The position numbers were made by a program, and so were the translations under genes. DNA of 42,890 bases from Bacillota bacterium (GTDB lineage: Bacteria > Bacillota > Limnochordia > Darwinibacteriales > Darwinibacteriaceae), in the NCBI GenBank assembly GCA_012799115.1, contig JAAZLY010000166.1, positions 1 through 42,890 on the forward strand. The letters are read 5' to 3'. Positions 1,530 through 33,266 of the stretch are shown here, in pieces (the first letter of the stretch is position 1; every line of letters starts with the position of its first letter). The notes below the pieces were generated by a model, which did not search any database, was not told where the DNA came from, and saw only the letters and a program-made list of their open reading frames with translations.

Positions 1530-5054
<3,525 letters not shown>

Positions 5055-5075
5055 TACTACATGAATGGAACCTGC

Positions 5076-5102
5076 AAAAGCAGCCCCTCGGGGCTGCTTT
5101 TT
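5076..5102. terminator. Bidirectional intrinsic terminator between nifJ and the convergent hydrolase gene
   Basis: aaaaGCAGCCCctcgGGGCTGCtttt: a 7-bp GC-rich stem with an A-run upstream and a T-run downstream. It sits directly between the two stop codons. Confidence 0.7.
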
Positions 5103-5711
5103 CTAGGCAAAGACGTGGTCACCGATCTGGAGCTTTACTGTGCGGGTCCACACCCAGCTTGACGGGGGTACCTTGCGGGGATTCCAAAAGAAGACCGACC
5201 CATGGGTCGGGTCTACACCCGACATAGCTTCTAGAACAGCAAGGTAGGCTAAATTGTCTGGCGTCTGATAAATTGTCCCGTTGGCCACCGGTTCGAACTG
5301 ACGGGGCTGAAAGATTGCCTCCCGTACTGTATTGGGGAAGTCTGGGTGCTTAACTCGGTTAAGCAAGACTGCGGCAACCGCGATCTGCCCTGTGAAGGGT
5401 TCTCCCCTCGCTTCAGCAAATACCAGACGAGCTAGGAGCGCAATATCATCTAAGTCGCTCTGGGAGTATACTCCCTCTGGCAAAACAAACCCACCCTCCA
5501 AAGACGGCAATGTGGGTGTAGACGGAAGTTCGTCGTTTACAATTGGCTCCTCATTGTCCTGGGAACCAACCGGTATAGTCAGGGATTGACCGATCATGAT
5601 TTGGTCTCCCTGCAGACCATTTGCCAAGCATAACTGCTCGAGGCTAACTTGATACTCCTGGGCTATGCGCCACAGAGTATCCCCAGCCTTCACGACATGA
5701 ATGCGAGACAC
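5103..5711 (-). CDS. LysM-domain cell wall hydrolase of the SleB/CwlJ (Hydrolase_2) type, a spore-cortex-lytic enzyme family
   Basis: The N-terminal LysM is HVVKAGDTLWRIAQEYQVSLEQLCLANGL...GQSLTIP. The C-terminal block is ARLVFAEARGEPFTGQIAVAAVLLNRVKHPDFPNTVREAIFQPRQFEPV. GTG start with SD AAAGGAG 7 nt upstream. Confidence 0.85.
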   Translation of the reverse strand: MSRIHVVKAGDTLWRIAQEYQVSLEQLCLANGLQGDQIMIGQSLTIPVGSQDNEEPIVNDELPSTPTLPSLEGGFVLPEGVYSQSDLDDIALLARLVFAEARGEPFTGQIAVAAVLLNRVKHPDFPNTVREAIFQPRQFEPVANGTIYQTPDNLAYLAVLEAMSGVDPTHGSVFFWNPRKVPPSSWVWTRTVKLQIGDHVFA

Positions 5712-5855
5712 GCGATCACTCCTTTCACTTGGGATTGTCTCCAGATAGCCTATGCAAGGAGGACGCCCTCGGCAACTTACCTAGGTACTTGAAGGAAGAA
5801 CGTTCTATATGTCAAACTATAGTGCATACTATATCCATCACTAAGGAGGATGAGA

Positions 5856-6563
5856 ATGACTACACCGCATAATGCAGCAAAACCCGGTGATATCGCAAAA
5901 ACGGTTCTGATGCCAGGCGATCCACTCCGGGCCAAGTTTGTAGCTGAGACGTATCTTACAGATGTTAAGTGTTACAACGAAGTTCGGGGTATGTATGGTT
6001 TTACAGGGCTTTACCAGGGAAAACCCGTGTCCGTACAGGGCCATGGAATGGGAATGCCTTCCATTGGAATTTATACCTACGAACTGTATAATATGTATGA
6101 TGTAGACAACAACATACGTATCGGTTCAGCAGGTGCGATCCGCGAAGACGTGAAGATCATGGATCTGGTCTTTGGCATGGGCGCCTGTACAGACTCAAAT
6201 TATGCCTATCAATACGGCATGCCAGGCACCTACGCCCCTATCGCGACGTATGAACTCCTAGAAAAGGCTGTAGAGATCGCCAAGGAGAAAGGGCAAAAGT
6301 ACTTTGTGGGCAACATTTTGTCAGCAGACATCTTCTACAATGAGTTGGGTAAACCAACTGCTTGGAAGGAAATGGGTGTGCTCGCTGTAGAAATGGAAGC
6401 AGCTGCCTTATACCTCAATGCAGCCAAAGCCAAGAAAAACGCCCTCTGTATGCTAACGATCTCTGATGAACTTCACAGTGGCAAAGAACTCCCGGCCCAT
6501 GATCGCCAAGTCAGTTTCACGCAGATGATGGAAATCGCCCTGGAGCTGGCCATTAGTCTCTAG
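5856..6563 (+). CDS. deoD: Purine nucleoside phosphorylase, DeoD type
   Basis: Motifs [44 protein letters not shown] and [10 protein letters not shown] prefer the ATG at 5856 over 5850 because the SD AAGGAGG (5843-5849) is then 6 nt upstream. Confidence 0.9.
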
Positions 6564-6666: not shown

Positions 6667-7923
6667 ATGAAAAGACCATTTGTTGATGCAACAACCCTAC
6701 GTAAAATCGTTGCAGAGTACCCCACTCCCTTTCATCTCTATGACGAACAAGGCATTCGAGATAACGCCCGCCGGCTTCACCAGGCCTTCGCTTGGAACGC
6801 AGGCTTTAAAGAGTACTTTGCCGTCAAGGCCACGCCGAATCCCACGATTCTGACCATCCTTAAAGAAGAAGGTTGCGGAGTGGACTGCGCTACATCTACC
6901 GAACTACTTCTTGCTGATGCAGTAGGATTTAAGGGACAGGAGATCATGTTTTCATCCAATATGACATCCCTTGAGGATTTTCAGCATGCCCACCAACTTG
7001 GTGCCATCATAAACCTCGATGATCTGACTGATGTAGAGTACATCAAACAGCTGCCCACGATTCCTAAAACAATCTGTTTGCGCTATAATCCAGGGGGCAA
7101 TTTCTCCATTAGCAATGAGATCATGGATACCCCTGGTGAGGCAAAATATGGTATGACTCGCTCCCAGCTCAGTCTAGCCATTACCCAGCTCTTGGATCTT
7201 GGTGTCGAACAATTTGGACTTCATGCCTTTTTAGCCAGCAACACGACGACGAACGACTACTATCCCACCCTGGCCAAGATTCTTTTTGAACTCGTTCGAG
7301 ATCTACAAGAGGAGACAGGAGCCCACTTCACTTTGGTGAATCTCTCAGGGGGCATTGGCGTTCCCTACCACCCCGACCAAAAAGCTGCAGACATTACGGC
7401 TATCGGCTCTGGGGTAGAAGTAGCCTTCAACAGCATTCTAGTGCCAGCTGGCCTAGGAGATCTGTCTATCGTTGCCGAACTAGGGCGTTTTATGCTGGCA
7501 CCGTACGGGCACTTAGTGGCCACCGCTGTACGTCGTAAGGACATCTATAAGCACTATATTGGCCTAGATGCCTCTGCGGCCAATCTGATGCGTCCGGCCA
7601 TGTATGGGTCGTATCATCACATTACCATTGCAGGCAAAGAAGATGCCCCCCATGACCACATCTATGATGTCGTAGGAGGGCTCTGCGAGAACAATGACAA
7701 GTTTGCGATTAACAGGAAGTTACCAGAGATTGAGCTGGGTGACCTAGTCGTAATTCACGACACAGGTGCCCACGGTTTCTCCATGGGATACAACTACAAT
7801 GGGAAACTCCGCTCAGCAGAAGTATTACTCAAGGCTGATGGGAGCACCGAACTGATTCGTCGGGCCGAAACCCCTGAGGATTACTTCGCTACCCTCAAGC
7901 TTCCTGTACGCTCAAGCCTTTAG
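6667..7923 (+). CDS. lysA: PLP-dependent decarboxylase of the diaminopimelate decarboxylase (LysA) / Orn-DAP-Arg decarboxylase fold family
   Basis: The PLP-lysine context is YFAVKATPNP. The C-terminal block is GGLCENNDKF...GDLVVIHDTGAHGFSMGYNYNGKLRSAEVLL. The ATG at 6667 is preceded by GGAGG 6 nt upstream, so the listed start at 6625 is probably too long. The exact substrate (DAP versus a related amine) cannot be fixed by eye. Confidence 0.8.
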   Translation: MKRPFVDATTLRKIVAEYPTPFHLYDEQGIRDNARRLHQAFAWNAGFKEYFAVKATPNPTILTILKEEGCGVDCATSTELLLADAVGFKGQEIMFSSNMTSLEDFQHAHQLGAIINLDDLTDVEYIKQLPTIPKTICLRYNPGGNFSISNEIMDTPGEAKYGMTRSQLSLAITQLLDLGVEQFGLHAFLASNTTTNDYYPTLAKILFELVRDLQEETGAHFTLVNLSGGIGVPYHPDQKAADITAIGSGVEVAFNSILVPAGLGDLSIVAELGRFMLAPYGHLVATAVRRKDIYKHYIGLDASAANLMRPAMYGSYHHITIAGKEDAPHDHIYDVVGGLCENNDKFAINRKLPEIELGDLVVIHDTGAHGFSMGYNYNGKLRSAEVLLKADGSTELIRRAETPEDYFATLKLPVRSSL

Positions 7924-8486: not shown

Positions 8487-9251
8487 TTGGATTCTATCTA
8501 TAGATATCCCCAATACTATGAAATAGCCTACTCCTACCGGAATATTGCCGCGGAAGTCGATGTAATGGAGGAAGCTGTGCGCAAGTACTCCAAGATTCCG
8601 GTACAGACTGTCTTGGAACTAGCATGTGGCAACAGTCCCCACATGCTTGAGCTAGCTGCTCGGGGTTACGATTACTATGGCCTAGACATAAGTCCTACCA
8701 TGATCGAGTTTGCCCAAGAAAAAGCCAGAGAACACGGACTGGATGTCCATTTTTATCTAGCCAACTTCGTCGACTTTCAGATCGAAAAGCCGGTAGACTT
8801 CGTCTACATCATGCTCGGTTCTCTCTATGTGAATAACACCGAAGAGCTTCTCAGTCACTTTGCCAATGTGTATCAAGCCCTGAAACCTGGCGGACTGTAC
8901 TTCCTCGAATGGTGCATTGACTTTGCTTCCCTCGATAACAGCCTTGATAGCTGGGTCATGCGTCAAGACGGGATCACCGTTACCACCCGTTACTCAACGC
9001 GTCTACATAATGCCCCAGAGCAGCTCTATGAAGAGAACATCCTCTTTACCATCAAAGATAAGGGGAAACCCCTCAAGTTACTCCATACAGGCCTACGGAG
9101 AGCGATCTTTCCTCAGGAGTTTGTCTTGGCCGCCACCAAGCTCAACGGATTTGAGCTTCTAGGTTGGTGGGATGACTGGAACTGGAATCGTCCCCTAGGA
9201 GAAGGACGGGGCGAAATCGTCCGCCCCATCACAGTATTACGCCGTCCCTAG
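8487..9251 (+). CDS. Class I SAM-dependent methyltransferase
   Basis: SAM-binding motif I is VLELACGNSPHMLELAARGYDYYGLDISPTMIEFA, and the post-I/II region contains LKPGGLYF. TTG start. Confidence 0.8.
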   Translation: MDSIYRYPQYYEIAYSYRNIAAEVDVMEEAVRKYSKIPVQTVLELACGNSPHMLELAARGYDYYGLDISPTMIEFAQEKAREHGLDVHFYLANFVDFQIEKPVDFVYIMLGSLYVNNTEELLSHFANVYQALKPGGLYFLEWCIDFASLDNSLDSWVMRQDGITVTTRYSTRLHNAPEQLYEENILFTIKDKGKPLKLLHTGLRRAIFPQEFVLAATKLNGFELLGWWDDWNWNRPLGEGRGEIVRPITVLRRP

Positions 9252-10429
9252 CTAGCTGTGCCTCGGCAGAGTTGATAAATGGACAAGACGTCCTTTTGAC
9301 CTAAGGTCATGAAGCTACCGAGTGTCTGTGTGTCTCCAGCGGTGGCCTTCTCGGCCATCTCCTGGAGACGATCGGTTGGGATATTAGCTTCGGCCAACGT
9401 TGTTGGTAAGCCAATGCGGTGGAAGAAATCTTCTAGACGGCGAATCCCTTCGAGAATCGTTCGTTCTGGATTGTGGAAATCTTGCTCTACGCCAAAGACC
9501 CGGACCGCAAACTGTACAAAGCGCTCTGGGTTTTGCTTATACACGTACTTCATCCAAGCCGGAAACACAATGGACAAACCGGCGCCATGAGCAATGTCAT
9601 AAATTGCACTGAGCTCGTGTTCGATATTATGCGAAGCCCAATCCTCGCTACGCCCCATGCCTAAGAGATCGTTATGGGCAATCGTCCCGGCCCACATGAT
9701 GTTGGCTCTGGCACCATAATTCTCTGGCTCGGCAATGGCGATAGGAGCTTCCTGGATAATGCTGCGCATTGCTGCTTCACAGAGGTGATCGCTAAAGCCG
9801 ACATCCTCTTCATTGGTGAAGTAACGTTCCATGATATGGGCCATCATGTCAGACACACCACAAGCAGTCTGATAGGCTGGAAGAGTAAAGGTCAGCTCGG
9901 GGTTAAGTAAGGCAAACTTCGGACGCATTACAAGGGCTCCGTAACCGACTTTGAGCCAACCATCCTCATTTGTGATAACTGAACTTGGGCTCGATTCGCT
10001 ACCTGCAGCTGGAATCGTTAGAACAACTCCCAGTGGCAAGCTCTCTTCTGCCTTCGCTTTACCTGCATAGAAATCCCAGACATCACCATCGTAAGGTACG
10101 CCAATGGCGATCGCTTTCGCTGAGTCAATGGCGCTACCGCCACCCACGGCTAGGATCAGATCTACCTGCTCCTTACGGGCTAGCTCAATACCCTCTCGAA
10201 CCAGACTCAGTCTCGGATTGGGCTGGGCGCCACCGAGTTCCACGATCTCCAGACCGGCTTCCTTCAGGGAGTCTACGACCCGATCCTTTAGGCCGGTTCG
10301 GACAATATGCCCTCCGCCATAGTGCAATAGAACTTTCTTGCCCCAAAGAGCAGCTTCTTTACCTGCGCGTTCTTCTGCTCCCCGTCCAAAAACAATCTTT
10401 GTGACGTTAGAAAACGTAAAATCTAACAT
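9248..10429 (-). CDS. Iron-containing (group III) alcohol dehydrogenase, YqhD/BdhA-like
   Basis: Motifs VLLHYGGGHIVRTGL, LILAVGGGSAIDSAKAIA and the His-rich metal site SDMMAHIMERYF...HNIEHELS. An SD AGGAGGA lies in the 15-nt gap after the GH130 gene. Confidence 0.9.
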   Translation of the reverse strand: MLDFTFSNVTKIVFGRGAEERAGKEAALWGKKVLLHYGGGHIVRTGLKDRVVDSLKEAGLEIVELGGAQPNPRLSLVREGIELARKEQVDLILAVGGGSAIDSAKAIAIGVPYDGDVWDFYAGKAKAEESLPLGVVLTIPAAGSESSPSSVITNEDGWLKVGYGALVMRPKFALLNPELTFTLPAYQTACGVSDMMAHIMERYFTNEEDVGFSDHLCEAAMRSIIQEAPIAIAEPENYGARANIMWAGTIAHNDLLGMGRSEDWASHNIEHELSAIYDIAHGAGLSIVFPAWMKYVYKQNPERFVQFAVRVFGVEQDFHNPERTILEGIRRLEDFFHRIGLPTTLAEANIPTDRLQEMAEKATAGDTQTLGSFMTLGQKDVLSIYQLCRGTAS

Positions 10430-10444
10430 GATATCTCCTCCTGA

Positions 10445-11428
10445 CTAAAGACTTGAGTTGTCCTTCGTAAATTGAACCAGTTCTTGCACGTAGCCAAAGG
10501 CTACGGCCGTGACCGTATCTGCGCCGCCATAATAGAGGACTAAGCGGCCCGTGGCACTATCAACCAAGGCTGCACAAGGAAACGCTACGTTTGGTACATC
10601 TCCCACACACTCATAGTATGTTTGAGGTGATAGAATATAAGGGCTCGTTCTTGCCAAAACCCTCCAAGGCTGATCTAAGTCCAAGAGGGCTGCCCCAACG
10701 CTGTAGACGAAACCGTTACAGGATGTAAGGACACCGTGGTAGATCAAGAGCCAACCCTCAGAGGTTTCAATCGGGATGGGTCCTGCGCCGATCTTCGTCG
10801 ACTGCCAGCCCACTGTAGTTCCCATAACATGACGATGCTTGCCCCAATAGACCATATCAGGACTCTCGCTATAAAAGATATCGCCAAATGGTGTGTGGCC
10901 GTTATCACTAGGTCTAGACACCATAGCGAAATTCCCATTAATCTTCCGAGGGAATAGCACACCATTACGGTTAAACGGCAAAAAGGCGTTCTCAAGCTGA
11001 TGGAAGTCTATGAAGTCATGGGTATATGCCACACCGATGGTTGGACCATGATAACCGTTACACCAGGTTACATAATAGCGGTCTTCGATCCATACCACAC
11101 GAGGATCATAACCATAGACGAAGTTGCCAATCTCGGGGTCATCGCAGATAAAACGGATCGGTTCGTGCTCGATCGTCCAGTTTAGGGCATCTTTGCTCCG
11201 ACCCGAGTGAATACGCATTTCCCTCGCCCTATTATCTACTCTGAAGACTCCCCGAAACTCATCGCCATAGGGCACAACTGCGCTATTGAAGATGCTATTT
11301 GCACAAGGAATCAGGTCCCGGGGGATCACAGGATTCTCGGAATAACGCCATAAGACATCACTGTTTCCCGTAGGACGTTCTTGCCAGGGGATATTAGGTA
11401 TGTTCTGGCCTATGATTTTTAGACTCAT
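10445..11428 (-). CDS. Glycoside hydrolase family 130 enzyme (beta-mannoside phosphorylase/hydrolase type, short TM1225-like form)
   Basis: 327 aa. Motifs [10 protein letters not shown]...[12 protein letters not shown]...[54 protein letters not shown] and [21 protein letters not shown]. These blocks are characteristic of GH130. Confidence 0.85.
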
Positions 11429-30518: not shown

Positions 30519-30548
30519 CTTGACGACCATTTGTTGCTCGGCTATAAT
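30519..30548 (+). promoter_or_regulatory. Candidate sigma-70-type promoter driving the FMN riboswitch
   Basis: TTGACG (30519-30524), an 18-nt spacer, TATAAT (30543-30548), about 20 nt upstream of the aptamer. Confidence 0.5.
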
Positions 30549-30565
30549 AAGGGTGAAAACTGCAT

Positions 30566-30688
30566 AAGGAATTCTTCGGGGCGGGGTGAGATTCCCCACC
30601 GGCGGTCATAGTCCGCGAGCAGCCAACCTGGTTGTTGATTTGGTGAAATTCCAAAACCGACAGTATAGTCTGGATGGGAGAAGAACAG
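30566..30688 (+). promoter_or_regulatory. FMN riboswitch (RFN element) aptamer
   Basis: All conserved RFN blocks are present in order on the + strand: TTCTTCGGGGCGGGGTGAGATTCCCCACCGGCGGT, AGTCCGCGAGC, GATTTGGTGAAATTCCAAAACCGACAGT and AGTCTGGATGGGAGAAGAA. P1 is TTCTTC (30572-30577) paired with GAAGAA (30680-30685). Confidence 0.9.
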
Positions 30689-30730
30689 TCAGAGAGTGTA
30701 TTCTGTCTGTAGTTTGTAAATGTATGCCAA

Positions 30731-30764
30731 AGGCAGCCTGAAGAATTTTAGGCTGCTTTTTTTC
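30731..30764 (+). terminator. Intrinsic terminator forming the riboswitch expression platform
   Basis: GCAGCCT (30733-30739) and AGGCTGC (30750-30756) form the stem, with a 10-nt loop and seven T (30757-30763). It lies 45 nt upstream of the solute-binding protein ATG. Confidence 0.8.
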
Positions 30765-30808
30765 TATATTGGTCGAGACTTTAGTACATTTTGGAAGGAG
30801 TTCATCGT

Positions 30809-32080
30809 ATGAACAAAAAGCAAATTCTTTCTCTGATCGTCATCACACTTGTGGTAGGACTAGGTCTAGCGGGGGCTACTGTTCAAGCTCAAGTTACCAC
30901 AATCAATTACTGGCACTACCTTAGCGGCGACAATGCTCTGATTCATGAACAGATGATCGAAGAGTTCAACGCCCAGCATCCCCACATCCAAGTTGAGGTC
31001 CTATACGCTGGAAATCAGTTTGTGGCCCGAGACAAGCTCCTCGCGGCAGTGGCCGGTGGTGCAGCTCCAGACGTTGCCTTAGTAGACCAGTTTTGGCCTC
31101 CGCTAATGGTTTCTACTGGTGCACTCGTTCCCCTGAGTCATTTCATAGATGCCGAAGAGTACCTCAGTGACTTTAGCCAAGTATCCAAAGACACTGTCAC
31201 AGTCCAGGGGGAGGCATGGACGGTACCTTTTTCCCTCAGTAACCAAATCCTCCTGTATAACAAGGATAAGTTCAGAGAGGTCGGTTTGGATCCAGAAGCA
31301 CCGCCCGCAACCTGGGACGAACTCCTTGAGTATGCGGTCGCACTCACCCGAGATATCAATGGTGATGGACGAACCGACGAATGGGGCTTAAACTTCACAA
31401 CGAGAGCGAATATGGGCTCTATGTATGCCTTCATTACCTTCATGTGGCAGGCCGGAGGCGAGCTCTATAGTGAAGACTACAGCGAAGCGGTGTTTAATGA
31501 TGAAGCAGCTCGTGAAGCCGCCCAATTCTGGCTCGACCTCGCCCATAAACACAAGGTACTATCACTTTCGCCTCCAACGGATGGATTTGAGACTGGGCGC
31601 ATTGCCATGCAATACTCAAGCACTTCATCGATTGCAGCCACCAAGAACAGGGTCGATTTCGACTTGGGTGTAGCGCCCCTCCCGGCCTACAAGAATCAAG
31701 TGACCGGTGTCGGTGGTAGTAGCCTAGCCATTTTCAAGACCACGCCCACGAAAGAACAGGCCGCCTGGGAGTTTGTTAGCTGGATGGCGAGTGCCGAGAA
31801 CAATCTAGCCTGGAGTATGAAGACTGGGTATATCCCCCTTAGACTATCTGTACGAGAATCCGCTAGCTACCAGCAGTACCTGGCCGATGAACCCCACATG
31901 CAGGTTGTTATGGAACAGTTTGACTACGCTAGAGCCCGGCCCAATACAGTAAGTTATGCCGATCTATCTCGAATTTTGGGAGTGGCGGTAGAGGAAGCCC
32001 TCTACGGCAACAGCGACCCCGGACCCATTCTAGACAATGCTGTAAAAGAAGCAAACATCTATATTAGAGAACTCGACTAA
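30809..32080 (+). CDS. Periplasmic ABC-transporter solute-binding protein, family 1 (CUT1 / sugar-type). No cognate permease or ATPase genes are adjacent.
   Basis: The signal peptide MNKKQILSLIVITLVVGLGLAGATVQAQ has no lipobox Cys. Blocks TTINYWHYLSGDN...MIEEFNAQHPHIQVEV...KLLAAVAGGAAPDVALV are typical of SBP_bac_1. The ATG at 30809 has GGAAGGAG 9 nt upstream. Confidence 0.85.
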   Translation: MNKKQILSLIVITLVVGLGLAGATVQAQVTTINYWHYLSGDNALIHEQMIEEFNAQHPHIQVEVLYAGNQFVARDKLLAAVAGGAAPDVALVDQFWPPLMVSTGALVPLSHFIDAEEYLSDFSQVSKDTVTVQGEAWTVPFSLSNQILLYNKDKFREVGLDPEAPPATWDELLEYAVALTRDINGDGRTDEWGLNFTTRANMGSMYAFITFMWQAGGELYSEDYSEAVFNDEAAREAAQFWLDLAHKHKVLSLSPPTDGFETGRIAMQYSSTSSIAATKNRVDFDLGVAPLPAYKNQVTGVGGSSLAIFKTTPTKEQAAWEFVSWMASAENNLAWSMKTGYIPLRLSVRESASYQQYLADEPHMQVVMEQFDYARARPNTVSYADLSRILGVAVEEALYGNSDPGPILDNAVKEANIYIRELD

Positions 32081-32088
32081 AATACTCC

Positions 32089-32118
32089 GAAGGCTCAGGT
32101 AACTAAACCTGAGCCTTC
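32089..32118. terminator. Perfect 12-bp hairpin between or overlapping the convergent SBP and MFS genes (probable bidirectional terminator or stabiliser)
   Basis: GAAGGCTCAGGT-aactaa-ACCTGAGCCTTC. The MFS stop codon sits in the loop. There is no strong U-tract on either side. Confidence 0.45.
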
Positions 32119-33266
32119 CTCTCTTCAAACCTTTCTGGGTTGTAGCGTCGATAGAAGAGTAACCCCAGACCATTAATGAGCGCTACCACGATCCAAAGCA
32201 GACTATAGGAATAGGCTGCCAGCCATGACAAGCAAATGGAGCCTAACACTATGCCGAGGTCGAAGGCATTACTAAAGAAGGCCAGATCATTGGAAGCATC
32301 AACGGCGTTAATGCTAGCCCCTGGGACCATAGCCATGAGCACTGTATTGACGAAACCAAAACCCACACCGATAAGTATAGCCGCTACAATCAGGATGGTC
32401 ATCCCATTTAGCATACTCAATAGCAAAAGCCCTGCAATCAGTAGACAAAACCCCGGCACAATCAGGGCACTACGCCCAAATCGATCCGAAAGGTAGCCGC
32501 TTATGCCGCCACTAATGGTATAGGTAAGGGCAAACAAGCCAAAGAACAGACTGGGATTGGAGATCCCCACTTCATTGGCATGTAGGGTGAGGATGGATGA
32601 AGTCGCCCCCATCAGCGAAGCAGATAGGAACATCGTGCCAGACAAAACCAAAAGATTACGGTTCTTCCAGGGAGAGTGGGGTTGGTACTTTCTACCCATG
32701 CCCACGCCTGTGAGCCCACCTTTACCTTCCACAAAAAAGCTCAAGACCATGGCCAAGGCTACAACAACCATGCCACCCCAAAAGAGGACAGAGTAACCTG
32801 CACGTTCTGCAAGGAAGCTACCTAGAAGAGGACCGACCATCATCCCCAGACCGATCATAGCCGCAAAAATTCCAAAGAAGAATCCGCGGTTATCAGTGCG
32901 GGTATTGTCTGAAAGCAACCCCTGCGCTCCCGCAACAAACCCTGCAAGCCCGACACTCTGCAAGAGGCGCACTAGGGCCAGAAAACCGAAGCCCAGGAAG
33001 GGTTGATACAGAACCATCACTAAAGTGGCGATGACAAGACCGATCCGCAGAACCAATACATTCGACCGGCGCGTTGCCAAGGTACCAAAAAACACCTTAA
33101 AGCCGATGGAACCAAGGGACAAAAGACCCACAATCGCTCCAACTACGACTTCGCTACCACCCAGCCCTGTGATGTACAGGGGTAGGGTAGGCACAAACAT
33201 TTGATTCATTGTGTGATACAGAAATGTGATCATCAGGACTAGTGTTACATCTTTGAGTCTTCCCAT
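32103..33266 (-). CDS. MFS transporter (12-TM, MFS_1 type), substrate unknown
   Basis: 387 aa and polytopic, with an MFS loop 2-3 motif-like GTLATRRSNVLVLRIG and the second-half motif YLSDRFGRS. Confidence 0.85.
   Translation of the reverse strand: MGRLKDVTLVLMITFLYHTMNQMFVPTLPLYITGLGGSEVVVGAIVGLLSLGSIGFKVFFGTLATRRSNVLVLRIGLVIATLVMVLYQPFLGFGFLALVRLLQSVGLAGFVAGAQGLLSDNTRTDNRGFFFGIFAAMIGLGMMVGPLLGSFLAERAGYSVLFWGGMVVVALAMVLSFFVEGKGGLTGVGMGRKYQPHSPWKNRNLLVLSGTMFLSASLMGATSSILTLHANEVGISNPSLFFGLFALTYTISGGISGYLSDRFGRSALIVPGFCLLIAGLLLLSMLNGMTILIVAAILIGVGFGFVNTVLMAMVPGASINAVDASNDLAFFSNAFDLGIVLGSICLSWLAAYSYSLLWIVVALINGLGLLFYRRYNPERFEERKAQV

Follow-up and report, generated by a model that had tools for sequence, protein, structure and literature searches.

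An FMN riboswitch linked to a lone Ugp-like solute-binding protein gene suggests a split flavin importer in a genus of Limnochordia

Introduction

Nearly all riboflavin importers of bacteria have been defined by following riboswitches, and the flavin importers described so far (RibU, RibM/PnuX, RibN, ImpX, RfnT, RibZ, RibV, RibXY(Z) and RfuABCD) do not include any that uses a solute-binding protein (SBP) of the SBP_bac_1 family (PMC4418817). RibU of Listeria monocytogenes acquires flavin mononucleotide (FMN) as well as flavin adenine dinucleotide (FAD), a precedent for direct uptake of these cofactors by a riboflavin auxotroph (PMC9060500). Here we describe an FMN riboswitch followed by a single regulated gene that encodes an orphan, CUT1-type SBP, referred to as P0001. 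The locus lies in a 42,890-nt contig (JAAZLY010000166.1, assembly GCA_012799115.1) of an uncultured bacterium of the family Darwinibacteriaceae in the Limnochordia, a class to which the source names of close homologues also assign it; this whole stretch is called the window hereafter. An initial annotation of the window had stated that no importer known to be under FMN riboswitch control uses a CUT1-type SBP, which agrees with the published list, and no CUT1/Ugp-type flavin-binding protein was found in the literature searched in full text.

The reading that we favour, with a probability of roughly 0.55, is that P0001 serves as the receptor of a split, Ugp-like ATP-binding cassette (ABC) importer of the CUT1 class, which would have replaced the energy-coupling factor (ECF) transporter RibU and whose cargo would most likely be FMN, and possibly FAD.

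Results

Linkage of the riboswitch to one binding-protein gene

The assembly from which the window comes (G000, 80% complete) contains one FMN riboswitch, and exactly one was found in each of eight further species-level genomes that together with G000 represent its genus (genus g1). In 9/9 of these genomes the riboswitch is located 110-270 nt upstream of an orthologue of the P0001 gene, the orthologues being 79-90% identical, and the same arrangement was seen in 13 of the 13 metagenome contigs encoding an SBP of at least 78% identity. For a wider view, a covariance model (R1) built in this analysis from 28 Limnochordia aptamers was run on relatives of the SBP at 80 loci of GTDB representatives and at 33 loci in metagenomes, and Rfam on 15 loci; no locus with an SBP of 74% identity or less had the riboswitch upstream. 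In a maximum-likelihood tree the riboswitch-linked SBPs form a single clade (support 100/100) nested among operon-embedded SBPs that have no riboswitch. That is, the association of riboswitch and SBP arose once and has been retained throughout the genus. The initial annotation had named orthologues devoid of the riboswitch as an observation that would speak against its proposal, and none turned up in the nine genomes or the 13 contigs. An association of the riboswitch with the SBP family at large was rejected, since among the scanned loci the riboswitch is found upstream only of orthologues with at least 78% identity. Whole Ugp-like operons behind an FMN riboswitch were also sought in gut and rumen species, by way of AP_endonuc_2 homologues and sequence look-ups, and none was found.

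Three more distant loci were recorded on their own account. In a metagenome-assembled genome (MAG) of Anaerolineae (L080), a 45% identical SBP homologue (2184-3455) is adjacent to an FMN riboswitch (3724-3947, 85.6 bits) situated ~270 nt beyond the end of the SBP gene; the riboswitch faces the other way, with two unannotated genes and ribD ahead of it, and does not control the SBP. At L218 an orphan SBP of 28% identity (5001-6266) lies directly upstream of a thiamine pyrophosphate (TPP) riboswitch (6356-6466, 56.5 bits) leading into a cluster with a thiD-like kinase, a Zn-alcohol dehydrogenase, thiC and thiG, making this a second case of a Ugp-like orphan SBP beside a vitamin riboswitch. At L219 (391-10694) an operon of a MalK-type ATPase and two permeases continues into a tandem array of five SBP_bac_1 paralogues, each 452-456 aa long.

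Anatomy of the leader

Promoter, aptamer, intrinsic terminator, Shine-Dalgarno sequence and ATG, which the initial annotation had placed in this order, were each present within a few bases (Table 1). In a covariance search with RF00050 the aptamer aligned with the full-length model at a score exceeding the gathering score of 66.2 bits, and it reached 143 bits with model R1; it is the sole Rfam family matched across the whole 42.9-kb window. A terminator of -16 to -22 kcal/mol followed by a U-run was present in all seven orthologous leaders that were folded, and the orthologous terminator stems show a compensatory change, GCAGCC/GGCUGC to GCAACC/GGUUGC. Furthermore, the motif CCUGA(A/G)GAAUU inside the terminator keeps its complementarity to the 5′ strand of the aptamer helix P1 in the seven folded leaders. 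As read from these sequences, the leader has the build of a standard terminator/antiterminator OFF switch. The terminator U-run at window position 30757 is one T shorter in 4/4 metatranscriptome assemblies, which may be strain variation or a homopolymer error of assembly.

Because the major facilitator superfamily (MFS) gene beyond the SBP gene is convergent and separated from it by a 12-bp hairpin, and the aroA and aroB genes upstream of the leader are divergent, the regulated unit is monocistronic; convergent gene and hairpin are both seen in the sequence, as originally described. The possibility that the MFS neighbour is a hidden riboflavin transporter was considered and found to be unsupported, as the gene is convergent, lies outside riboswitch control and resembles efflux pumps of the CntE/Tet type.

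Flavin supply in the genus and its family

Family-wide counts were made on 25 genomes, i.e. the nine of genus g1 and 16 relatives from sister genera, and 16 more genomes were taken from neighbouring families. The lumazine synthase domain of RibH is absent from all 25 family genomes and present in 8/16 genomes of the neighbouring families; since RibH is missing throughout, the family appears to be riboflavin auxotrophic. In the sister genera a single FMN riboswitch precedes a gene for a RibU-type ECF S component of ~205 aa. RibU was found in 12 of the 16 sister genomes and in none of the nine genomes of the genus, from which PnuC/RibM (PnuX) is absent as well. Loss of RibU through loss of the ECF machinery as a whole was rejected, the ECF T component being kept in 9/9. 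In the genus, the riboswitch has no target other than the SBP gene. Since an auxotroph needs an importer and the riboswitch has this one target, P0001 can be read as part of a flavin importer. The proposal that it is a new flavin-related binding protein is thereby supported by the conserved linkage together with the loss of synthesis, RibU and PnuX, its ligand being a prediction.

Between aptamers of the genus and those of ribU in the sister genera the identity is 82%, compared with 69% for the aptamers of ribD operons in neighbouring families. Such values would fit a single riboswitch that exchanged one cargo, ribU, for another, the SBP gene. A replacement of ribU by the SBP gene in place was not borne out, since the sister-genus ribU loci and this locus share no flanking gene within 1.5 kb, and for this reason it is the similarity of the aptamers that speaks for inheritance from ribU.

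Two further arrangements were noticed in the sister genera. Four genomes (G018, G020, G023 and G024; 91-96% complete) have no FMN riboswitch, no RibU and no RibH. In G014 (contig C190) two ribU paralogues (8905-9513 and 10349-10957) flank a single FMN riboswitch, so that only the downstream copy is controllable.

Decay of the riboflavin kinase

The flavokinase domain (PF01687) was found in 0/9 genomes of the genus versus 16/16 of the other relatives, and the FMN adenylyltransferase domain (FAD_syn, PF06574) in 25/25 family genomes. The RibF homologue of G000 is intact as an open reading frame (ORF; Table 1), in which Pfam finds FAD_syn only (2.4e-40) and no PF01687 even at E-values up to 10. 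According to the alignment, the C-terminal half of RibF has lost the motif GxGRGRxLGFPTAN (deletion of 5-11 residues), the motif NPTF (7-residue deletion) and the Glu-containing strand in 9/9 genomes, and the same motifs are kept in all eight sister and outgroup RibF proteins that were aligned. The degenerate domain is nevertheless still an open frame of ~120 residues in all nine. This half of RibF thus appears as a lineage-wide, motif-less pseudo-kinase domain kept in frame, with shared deletions. Compensation by the archaeal-type CTP-dependent kinase (RibK, PF01982) or by PnuX/RibM was rejected, both being absent from the nine genomes. Because no route of riboflavin phosphorylation was found while the adenylyltransferase is kept, the cell would have to obtain FMN or FAD, and we infer that either of these is a likelier cargo than riboflavin.

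An operon that has lost its binding-protein gene

All SBP homologues that are 50%-74% identical to P0001 are embedded in one type of operon, consisting of two MalF/MalG-type permease genes, the SBP gene and a gene for an AP_endonuc_2 (xylose-isomerase-fold) enzyme, and containing no ATPase gene. Nearby there are often genes for a Zn-alcohol dehydrogenase, an aldolase (class II or DeoC) and a regulator of the RpiR type. Within the genus, an operon of this kind ('type B') survives in G004 and G006, where its SBP is a paralogue of 67-68% identity.

An orphan CUT1 permease pair elsewhere in the genome, for which the initial annotation had recommended a search, is found on G000 contigs C291 and C156. 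The two contigs share an exact 127-nt end overlap inside perm2, which corresponds to a break in the assembly graph and not to a real gap. When joined they read perm1-perm2-AP_endonuc_2, and AP_endonuc_2 starts at the end of perm2, leaving no room for an SBP gene. Perm1 of G000 shares 74% identity with the permease of the L052 operon. The same SBP-less operon ('type A') occurs in G001, G002, G003, G005, G006, G007 and G008, and hence in 8/9 genomes of the genus. Moreover, the type A permeases form one clade (97/98), the branching of which mirrors that of the riboswitch-linked SBP clade. Thus, the SBP gene left its operon once in the genus, and SBP and permease pair, both now orphans, are the two parts of what used to be a single operon and have co-diverged. 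It is from this co-divergence that we infer their pairing; the earlier suggestion that P0001 may dock to permeases encoded elsewhere is supported by the matching SBP-less pair in eight of the nine genomes. As for the energizing subunit, candidate MalK/UgpC-type ATPases of G000, recognized by sequence motifs, are encoded on C251 and C50.

In G006 (L062, C38, ~7006-7167) the AP_endonuc_2 gene has decayed, with 63/264 residues aligning, and both permeases are intact. The enzyme therefore seems to be dispensable for the present function of the permeases.

The binding protein and clues to its ligand

P0001 matches SBP_bac_1 (5e-44, 152 bits) and SBP_bac_8 (6.6e-44) in Pfam, and its AF2 model (predicted local distance difference test score of 93.3, with an N-terminal helix, residues 3-21, at lower values) shows the two-lobe fold of the MalE/UgpB type; together with the signal peptide, these are the features of a CUT1/SBP_bac_1 protein. 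On inspection of the sequence the signal peptide has no lipobox cysteine, and P0001 is therefore predicted to be a free periplasmic protein. It has no Pfam match to NMT1, the domain that would be expected of a RibY protein (NMT1/THI5-like, COG0715), and it has neither the Bmp domain nor the lipobox cysteine that would be expected of RfuA. A Foldseek search with the model returned 7bvt, 5ci5 and UgpB at TM scores of 0.78-0.82, i.e. generic CUT1 binders of oligosaccharides, dinucleotides and glycerophosphodiesters; an assignment of the ligand from the fold was therefore rejected, as the nearest structures do not discriminate.

The best NCBIfam match of P0001 is UgpB (NF008211), at 110.6 bits against a cut-off of 411 bits, so that the protein is not a UgpB orthologue. 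The best matches of the two permeases are UgpA and UgpE, and that of the AP_endonuc_2 enzyme is CbiR, a cobamide phosphodiesterase, all of them likewise below the cut-offs. The 'sugar-type' assignment of the initial annotation thus holds for the SBP_bac_1/CUT1 family and is refined to a Ugp-like, organophosphate type rather than simply a sugar type. In Mycobacterium tuberculosis UgpB, residues S153, S272, G306 and Y345 bind the phosphate of glycerophosphocholine (10.1101/529602). In a phmmer alignment these residues correspond to S144, S271, G303 and Y341 of P0001, which are invariant in both the riboswitch and the operon clades and occur in 57-61 of 61 family members. In the sugar-binding structures 7bvt and 5ci5 the residue aligned with S144 is N or D, that aligned with S271 is W or G, and that aligned with Y341 is M. 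For the other contacts of the mycobacterial protein, the 24%-identity alignment gives Y206 for W208, F71 for Y78 and Q94 (after D93) for D102, R385 being unaligned. FMN is itself a polyol phosphate.

The riboswitch clade has residues of its own at only nine positions, and only four of these replace a residue conserved in the operon clades: M139V, V205M, N221S and T342I. M205 is located between M202 and Y206, and I342 is next to Y341, so that two of the four changes adjoin predicted contact residues. Small changes may have sufficed for a new ligand, or the ligand of the ancestor may already have been similar to the ribityl-phosphate end of FMN; a third option is that the ligand did not change.

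Expression in compost and digesters

In four metatranscriptomes from composts and digesters, contigs were continuous from the leader into the SBP ORF. In run X1 the word depth was 84 for the SBP gene versus 23 for aroA, 39 for the MFS gene and 14 for the permease genes, and in run X7 it was 19 versus 0, ~5 and ~3, respectively, although contig word depth is a poor measure of expression. Still, the SBP gene is transcribed in nature, and more strongly than the putative permease genes, a usual pattern for binding proteins. Just upstream of perm1 (L227, G000 C291, 2932-3489) there is a gene for a 185-aa secreted protein with a very high metatranscriptome word depth, 100-550; ~60 nt at its start (2929-2992) have a depth in the thousands in three of the four runs, and could represent either an RNA of high abundance or sequence that other organisms share.

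Table 1. Coordinates of the features discussed, in the window unless a contig of G000 is named
Feature	Position	Strand	Remarks
Sigma-70-like promoter, TTGACG-17 nt-TATAAT	30520..30548	+	11/12 consensus positions matched
FMN riboswitch aptamer (RFN element, RF00050)	30568..30689	+	115.2 bits, E 2.7e-26, model 1-138 of 138
P1 5′ strand AAUUCUUCGGG, proposed antiterminator partner	30570..30580	+	complementary to 30737-30747 inside the terminator; read from the sequence
Intrinsic terminator, OFF expression platform	30729..30766	+	14-pair hairpin 30729-30760, then T-run; -18.8 kcal/mol
Shine-Dalgarno sequence GGAAGGAG	30795..30802	+	6-7 nt 5′ of the ATG at 30809; read from the sequence
Orphan periplasmic SBP gene (P0001), SBP_bac_1/Ugp-like, proposed flavin (FMN) receptor	30809..32080	+	423 aa
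Predicted signal peptide, residues 1-27, ending ...ATVQA/Q	30809..30889	+	cleavage site by eye
Hairpin of 12 bp separating the SBP gene from the convergent MFS gene	32089..32118	.	closes the monocistronic unit
MFS gene, convergent with the SBP gene	32103-33266	-	
SBP-less permease pair of G000	C291 3650-4876, continuing on C156 down to ~8138		then AP_endonuc_2
RibF homologue of the genus, in G000	C78 8643-9563	-	intact ORF, ~295 aa; homologues in L199-L206

Discussion

A possible mechanism and history

The findings can be combined into the following model. When cytoplasmic FMN is high, it would bind the aptamer, so that P1 and the terminator form and transcription ends short of the SBP gene; at low FMN, pairing of the P1 5′ strand with the terminator's 5′ arm and loop would allow read-through. 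The SBP would then be exported to the periplasm of this diderm firmicute, capture the flavin and deliver it to the SBP-less permease pair encoded on C291/C156, with a MalK/UgpC-type ATPase, again encoded elsewhere, powering transport. Imported FMN could be used directly, and the adenylyltransferase half of RibF would convert FMN to FAD. As to history, the SBP gene of a permease-permease-SBP-AP_endonuc_2 operon may have moved, in the ancestor of the genus, behind the ribU-type FMN riboswitch of the family, with ribU being lost and the riboflavin kinase half of RibF decaying.

How the evidence divides

Several points weigh against the favoured reading. All genomes compared are MAGs, 80-94% complete, so that absences are statistical, and a riboflavin kinase or transporter of a type not yet recognized may exist in the genus. 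G004 has the riboswitch-linked SBP, and no SBP-less permease pair was found in this genome. The AP_endonuc_2 gene is kept beside the orphan permeases in 7/8 genomes, a retention for which the favoured reading does not account. The surroundings of the operon-embedded relatives have a catabolic look. The mapping of residues onto UgpB rests on an alignment of 24% identity and, finally, the clade-specific substitutions are few and conservative, so that a change of ligand is not obvious from the sequence.

The foremost alternative, though unlikely, is that the same transporter under the same regulation carries unphosphorylated riboflavin, which would then be phosphorylated by a non-homologous kinase or by a residual activity of the RibF C-terminal domain. 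The described FMN-riboswitch-controlled importers were all first defined as riboflavin transporters (PMC4418817), and the persistence of the degenerate RibF domain as an open frame could be taken in the same sense. However, neither PF01687 nor PF01982 was found in the nine genomes, the PTAN motif and the catalytic Glu of RibF are gone, and the SBP has kept the UgpB-type phosphate-contacting residues, all of which points to a phosphorylated cargo.

Across its whole radiation, with SBP identity down to 78%, the genus has kept the riboswitch linkage, and terminator and antiterminator have been maintained by compensatory change. This is not what would be expected if P0001 still bound an ancestral non-flavin ligand (a polyol phosphate, a glycerophosphodiester or a sugar), the riboswitch being a leftover of ribU or coupling the uptake of a nutrient to flavin status, and flavin entering otherwise. 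The small number of substitutions, the catabolic-looking operons of the closest relatives, which have no riboswitch, and the AP_endonuc_2 gene retained by the orphan permeases are what such an explanation has in its favour. We nevertheless regard it as less likely again, in that the genus needs a flavin importer and has no known one, the SBP gene is the sole target of the riboswitch, and M205 and I342 adjoin predicted ligand contacts. That P0001 binds flavin without feeding a transporter, holding it in the periplasm (e.g. as an electron shuttle) or acting as a sensor, is very improbable: the gene is monocistronic, its mRNA exceeds that of the permeases and G004 appears to do without the orphan pair, but the pair co-occurs and co-diverges with the SBP in 8/9 genomes, a kinase-less auxotroph still needs uptake, and repression by cytoplasmic FMN fits the control of supply and not of respiration.

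Wider implications

A broader account can be put forward tentatively, at somewhat less than an even chance. In it, a free-living genus of composts and digesters would have given up riboflavin as a vitamin and would rely on FMN from its surroundings, imported by a Ugp-like system whose SBP alone is gated by the riboswitch. P0001 would then be the first CUT1-type flavin receptor and its system the first dedicated FMN importer, having originated by the move of one gene of an organophosphate operon behind the ribU riboswitch and a handful of changes near the pocket. By extension, the whole operon family, with its permeases, SBP and CbiR-like phosphodiesterase, may handle ribityl-phosphate or flavin-like phosphoesters. 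Such a system would bring a new transporter family into flavin biology and would be a case of vitamin transport regulated solely at the level of the binding protein. The genus would be a rare example of a non-parasitic bacterium dependent on a phosphorylated cofactor and not on the vitamin, which would bear on flavin cross-feeding in anaerobic digesters and compost, and the locus would be a clean and datable instance of a transporter re-purposed through the relocation of a gene.

Comparison with known systems

A link to the 'fin' cluster for anaerobic riboflavin degradation in Clostridium scindens (bioRxiv 10.64898/2026.02.13.705874) was considered and rejected, since there is no ABC transporter in that cluster and the likeness in aldolase and alcohol dehydrogenase is too loose. 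In its logic, the locus comes closest to ribY of Deinococci, which is monocistronic and FMN-riboswitch-controlled and has its permease encoded elsewhere (PMC4418817). RibXY(Z), as in Chloroflexus aurantiacus, is likewise an ABC importer with a binding protein under an FMN riboswitch, but it combines an NMT1/THI5-like RibY with a COG0600 permease, whereas P0001 is an SBP_bac_1/SBP_bac_8 protein associated with MalF/MalG-type permeases, and the cargo of RibXY(Z) is riboflavin, that of the P0001 system being predicted to be FMN. RfuABCD of spirochaetes resembles the proposed system as a flavin-scavenging ABC importer of auxotrophs with a periplasmic binding protein. RfuA, which binds riboflavin, is nevertheless a member of the BMP/PnrA family, in a CUT2-like system, and has no homology to P0001. 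The closest analogy in cargo is RibU of Listeria, although ECF-RibU is a different class of transporter, with an S component of ~200 aa; in the sister genera this is the very gene that the riboswitch precedes, and the genus under study does not have it.

By family, the nearest relative is UgpBAEC-UgpQ, known from Escherichia coli and, for UgpB, from M. tuberculosis (4mfi/6r1b), which provides the best NCBIfam matches, a matching fold and the aligned Ser, Ser, Gly and Tyr of the phosphate contact; the putative phosphodiesterase of the ancestral operon would be a functional analogue of UgpQ. The differences are the low family score and identity of P0001 relative to UgpB, the missing ATPase gene in the ancestral operon, and an AP_endonuc_2 (CbiR-like) enzyme under FMN riboswitch control of the transporter, in contrast to the glycerophosphodiester phosphodiesterase (GDPD) enzyme and the Pho control of Ugp. 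What would be new here is riboswitch-controlled ABC uptake of a vitamin built from a different transporter family, with a split architecture and a predicted phosphorylated cargo.

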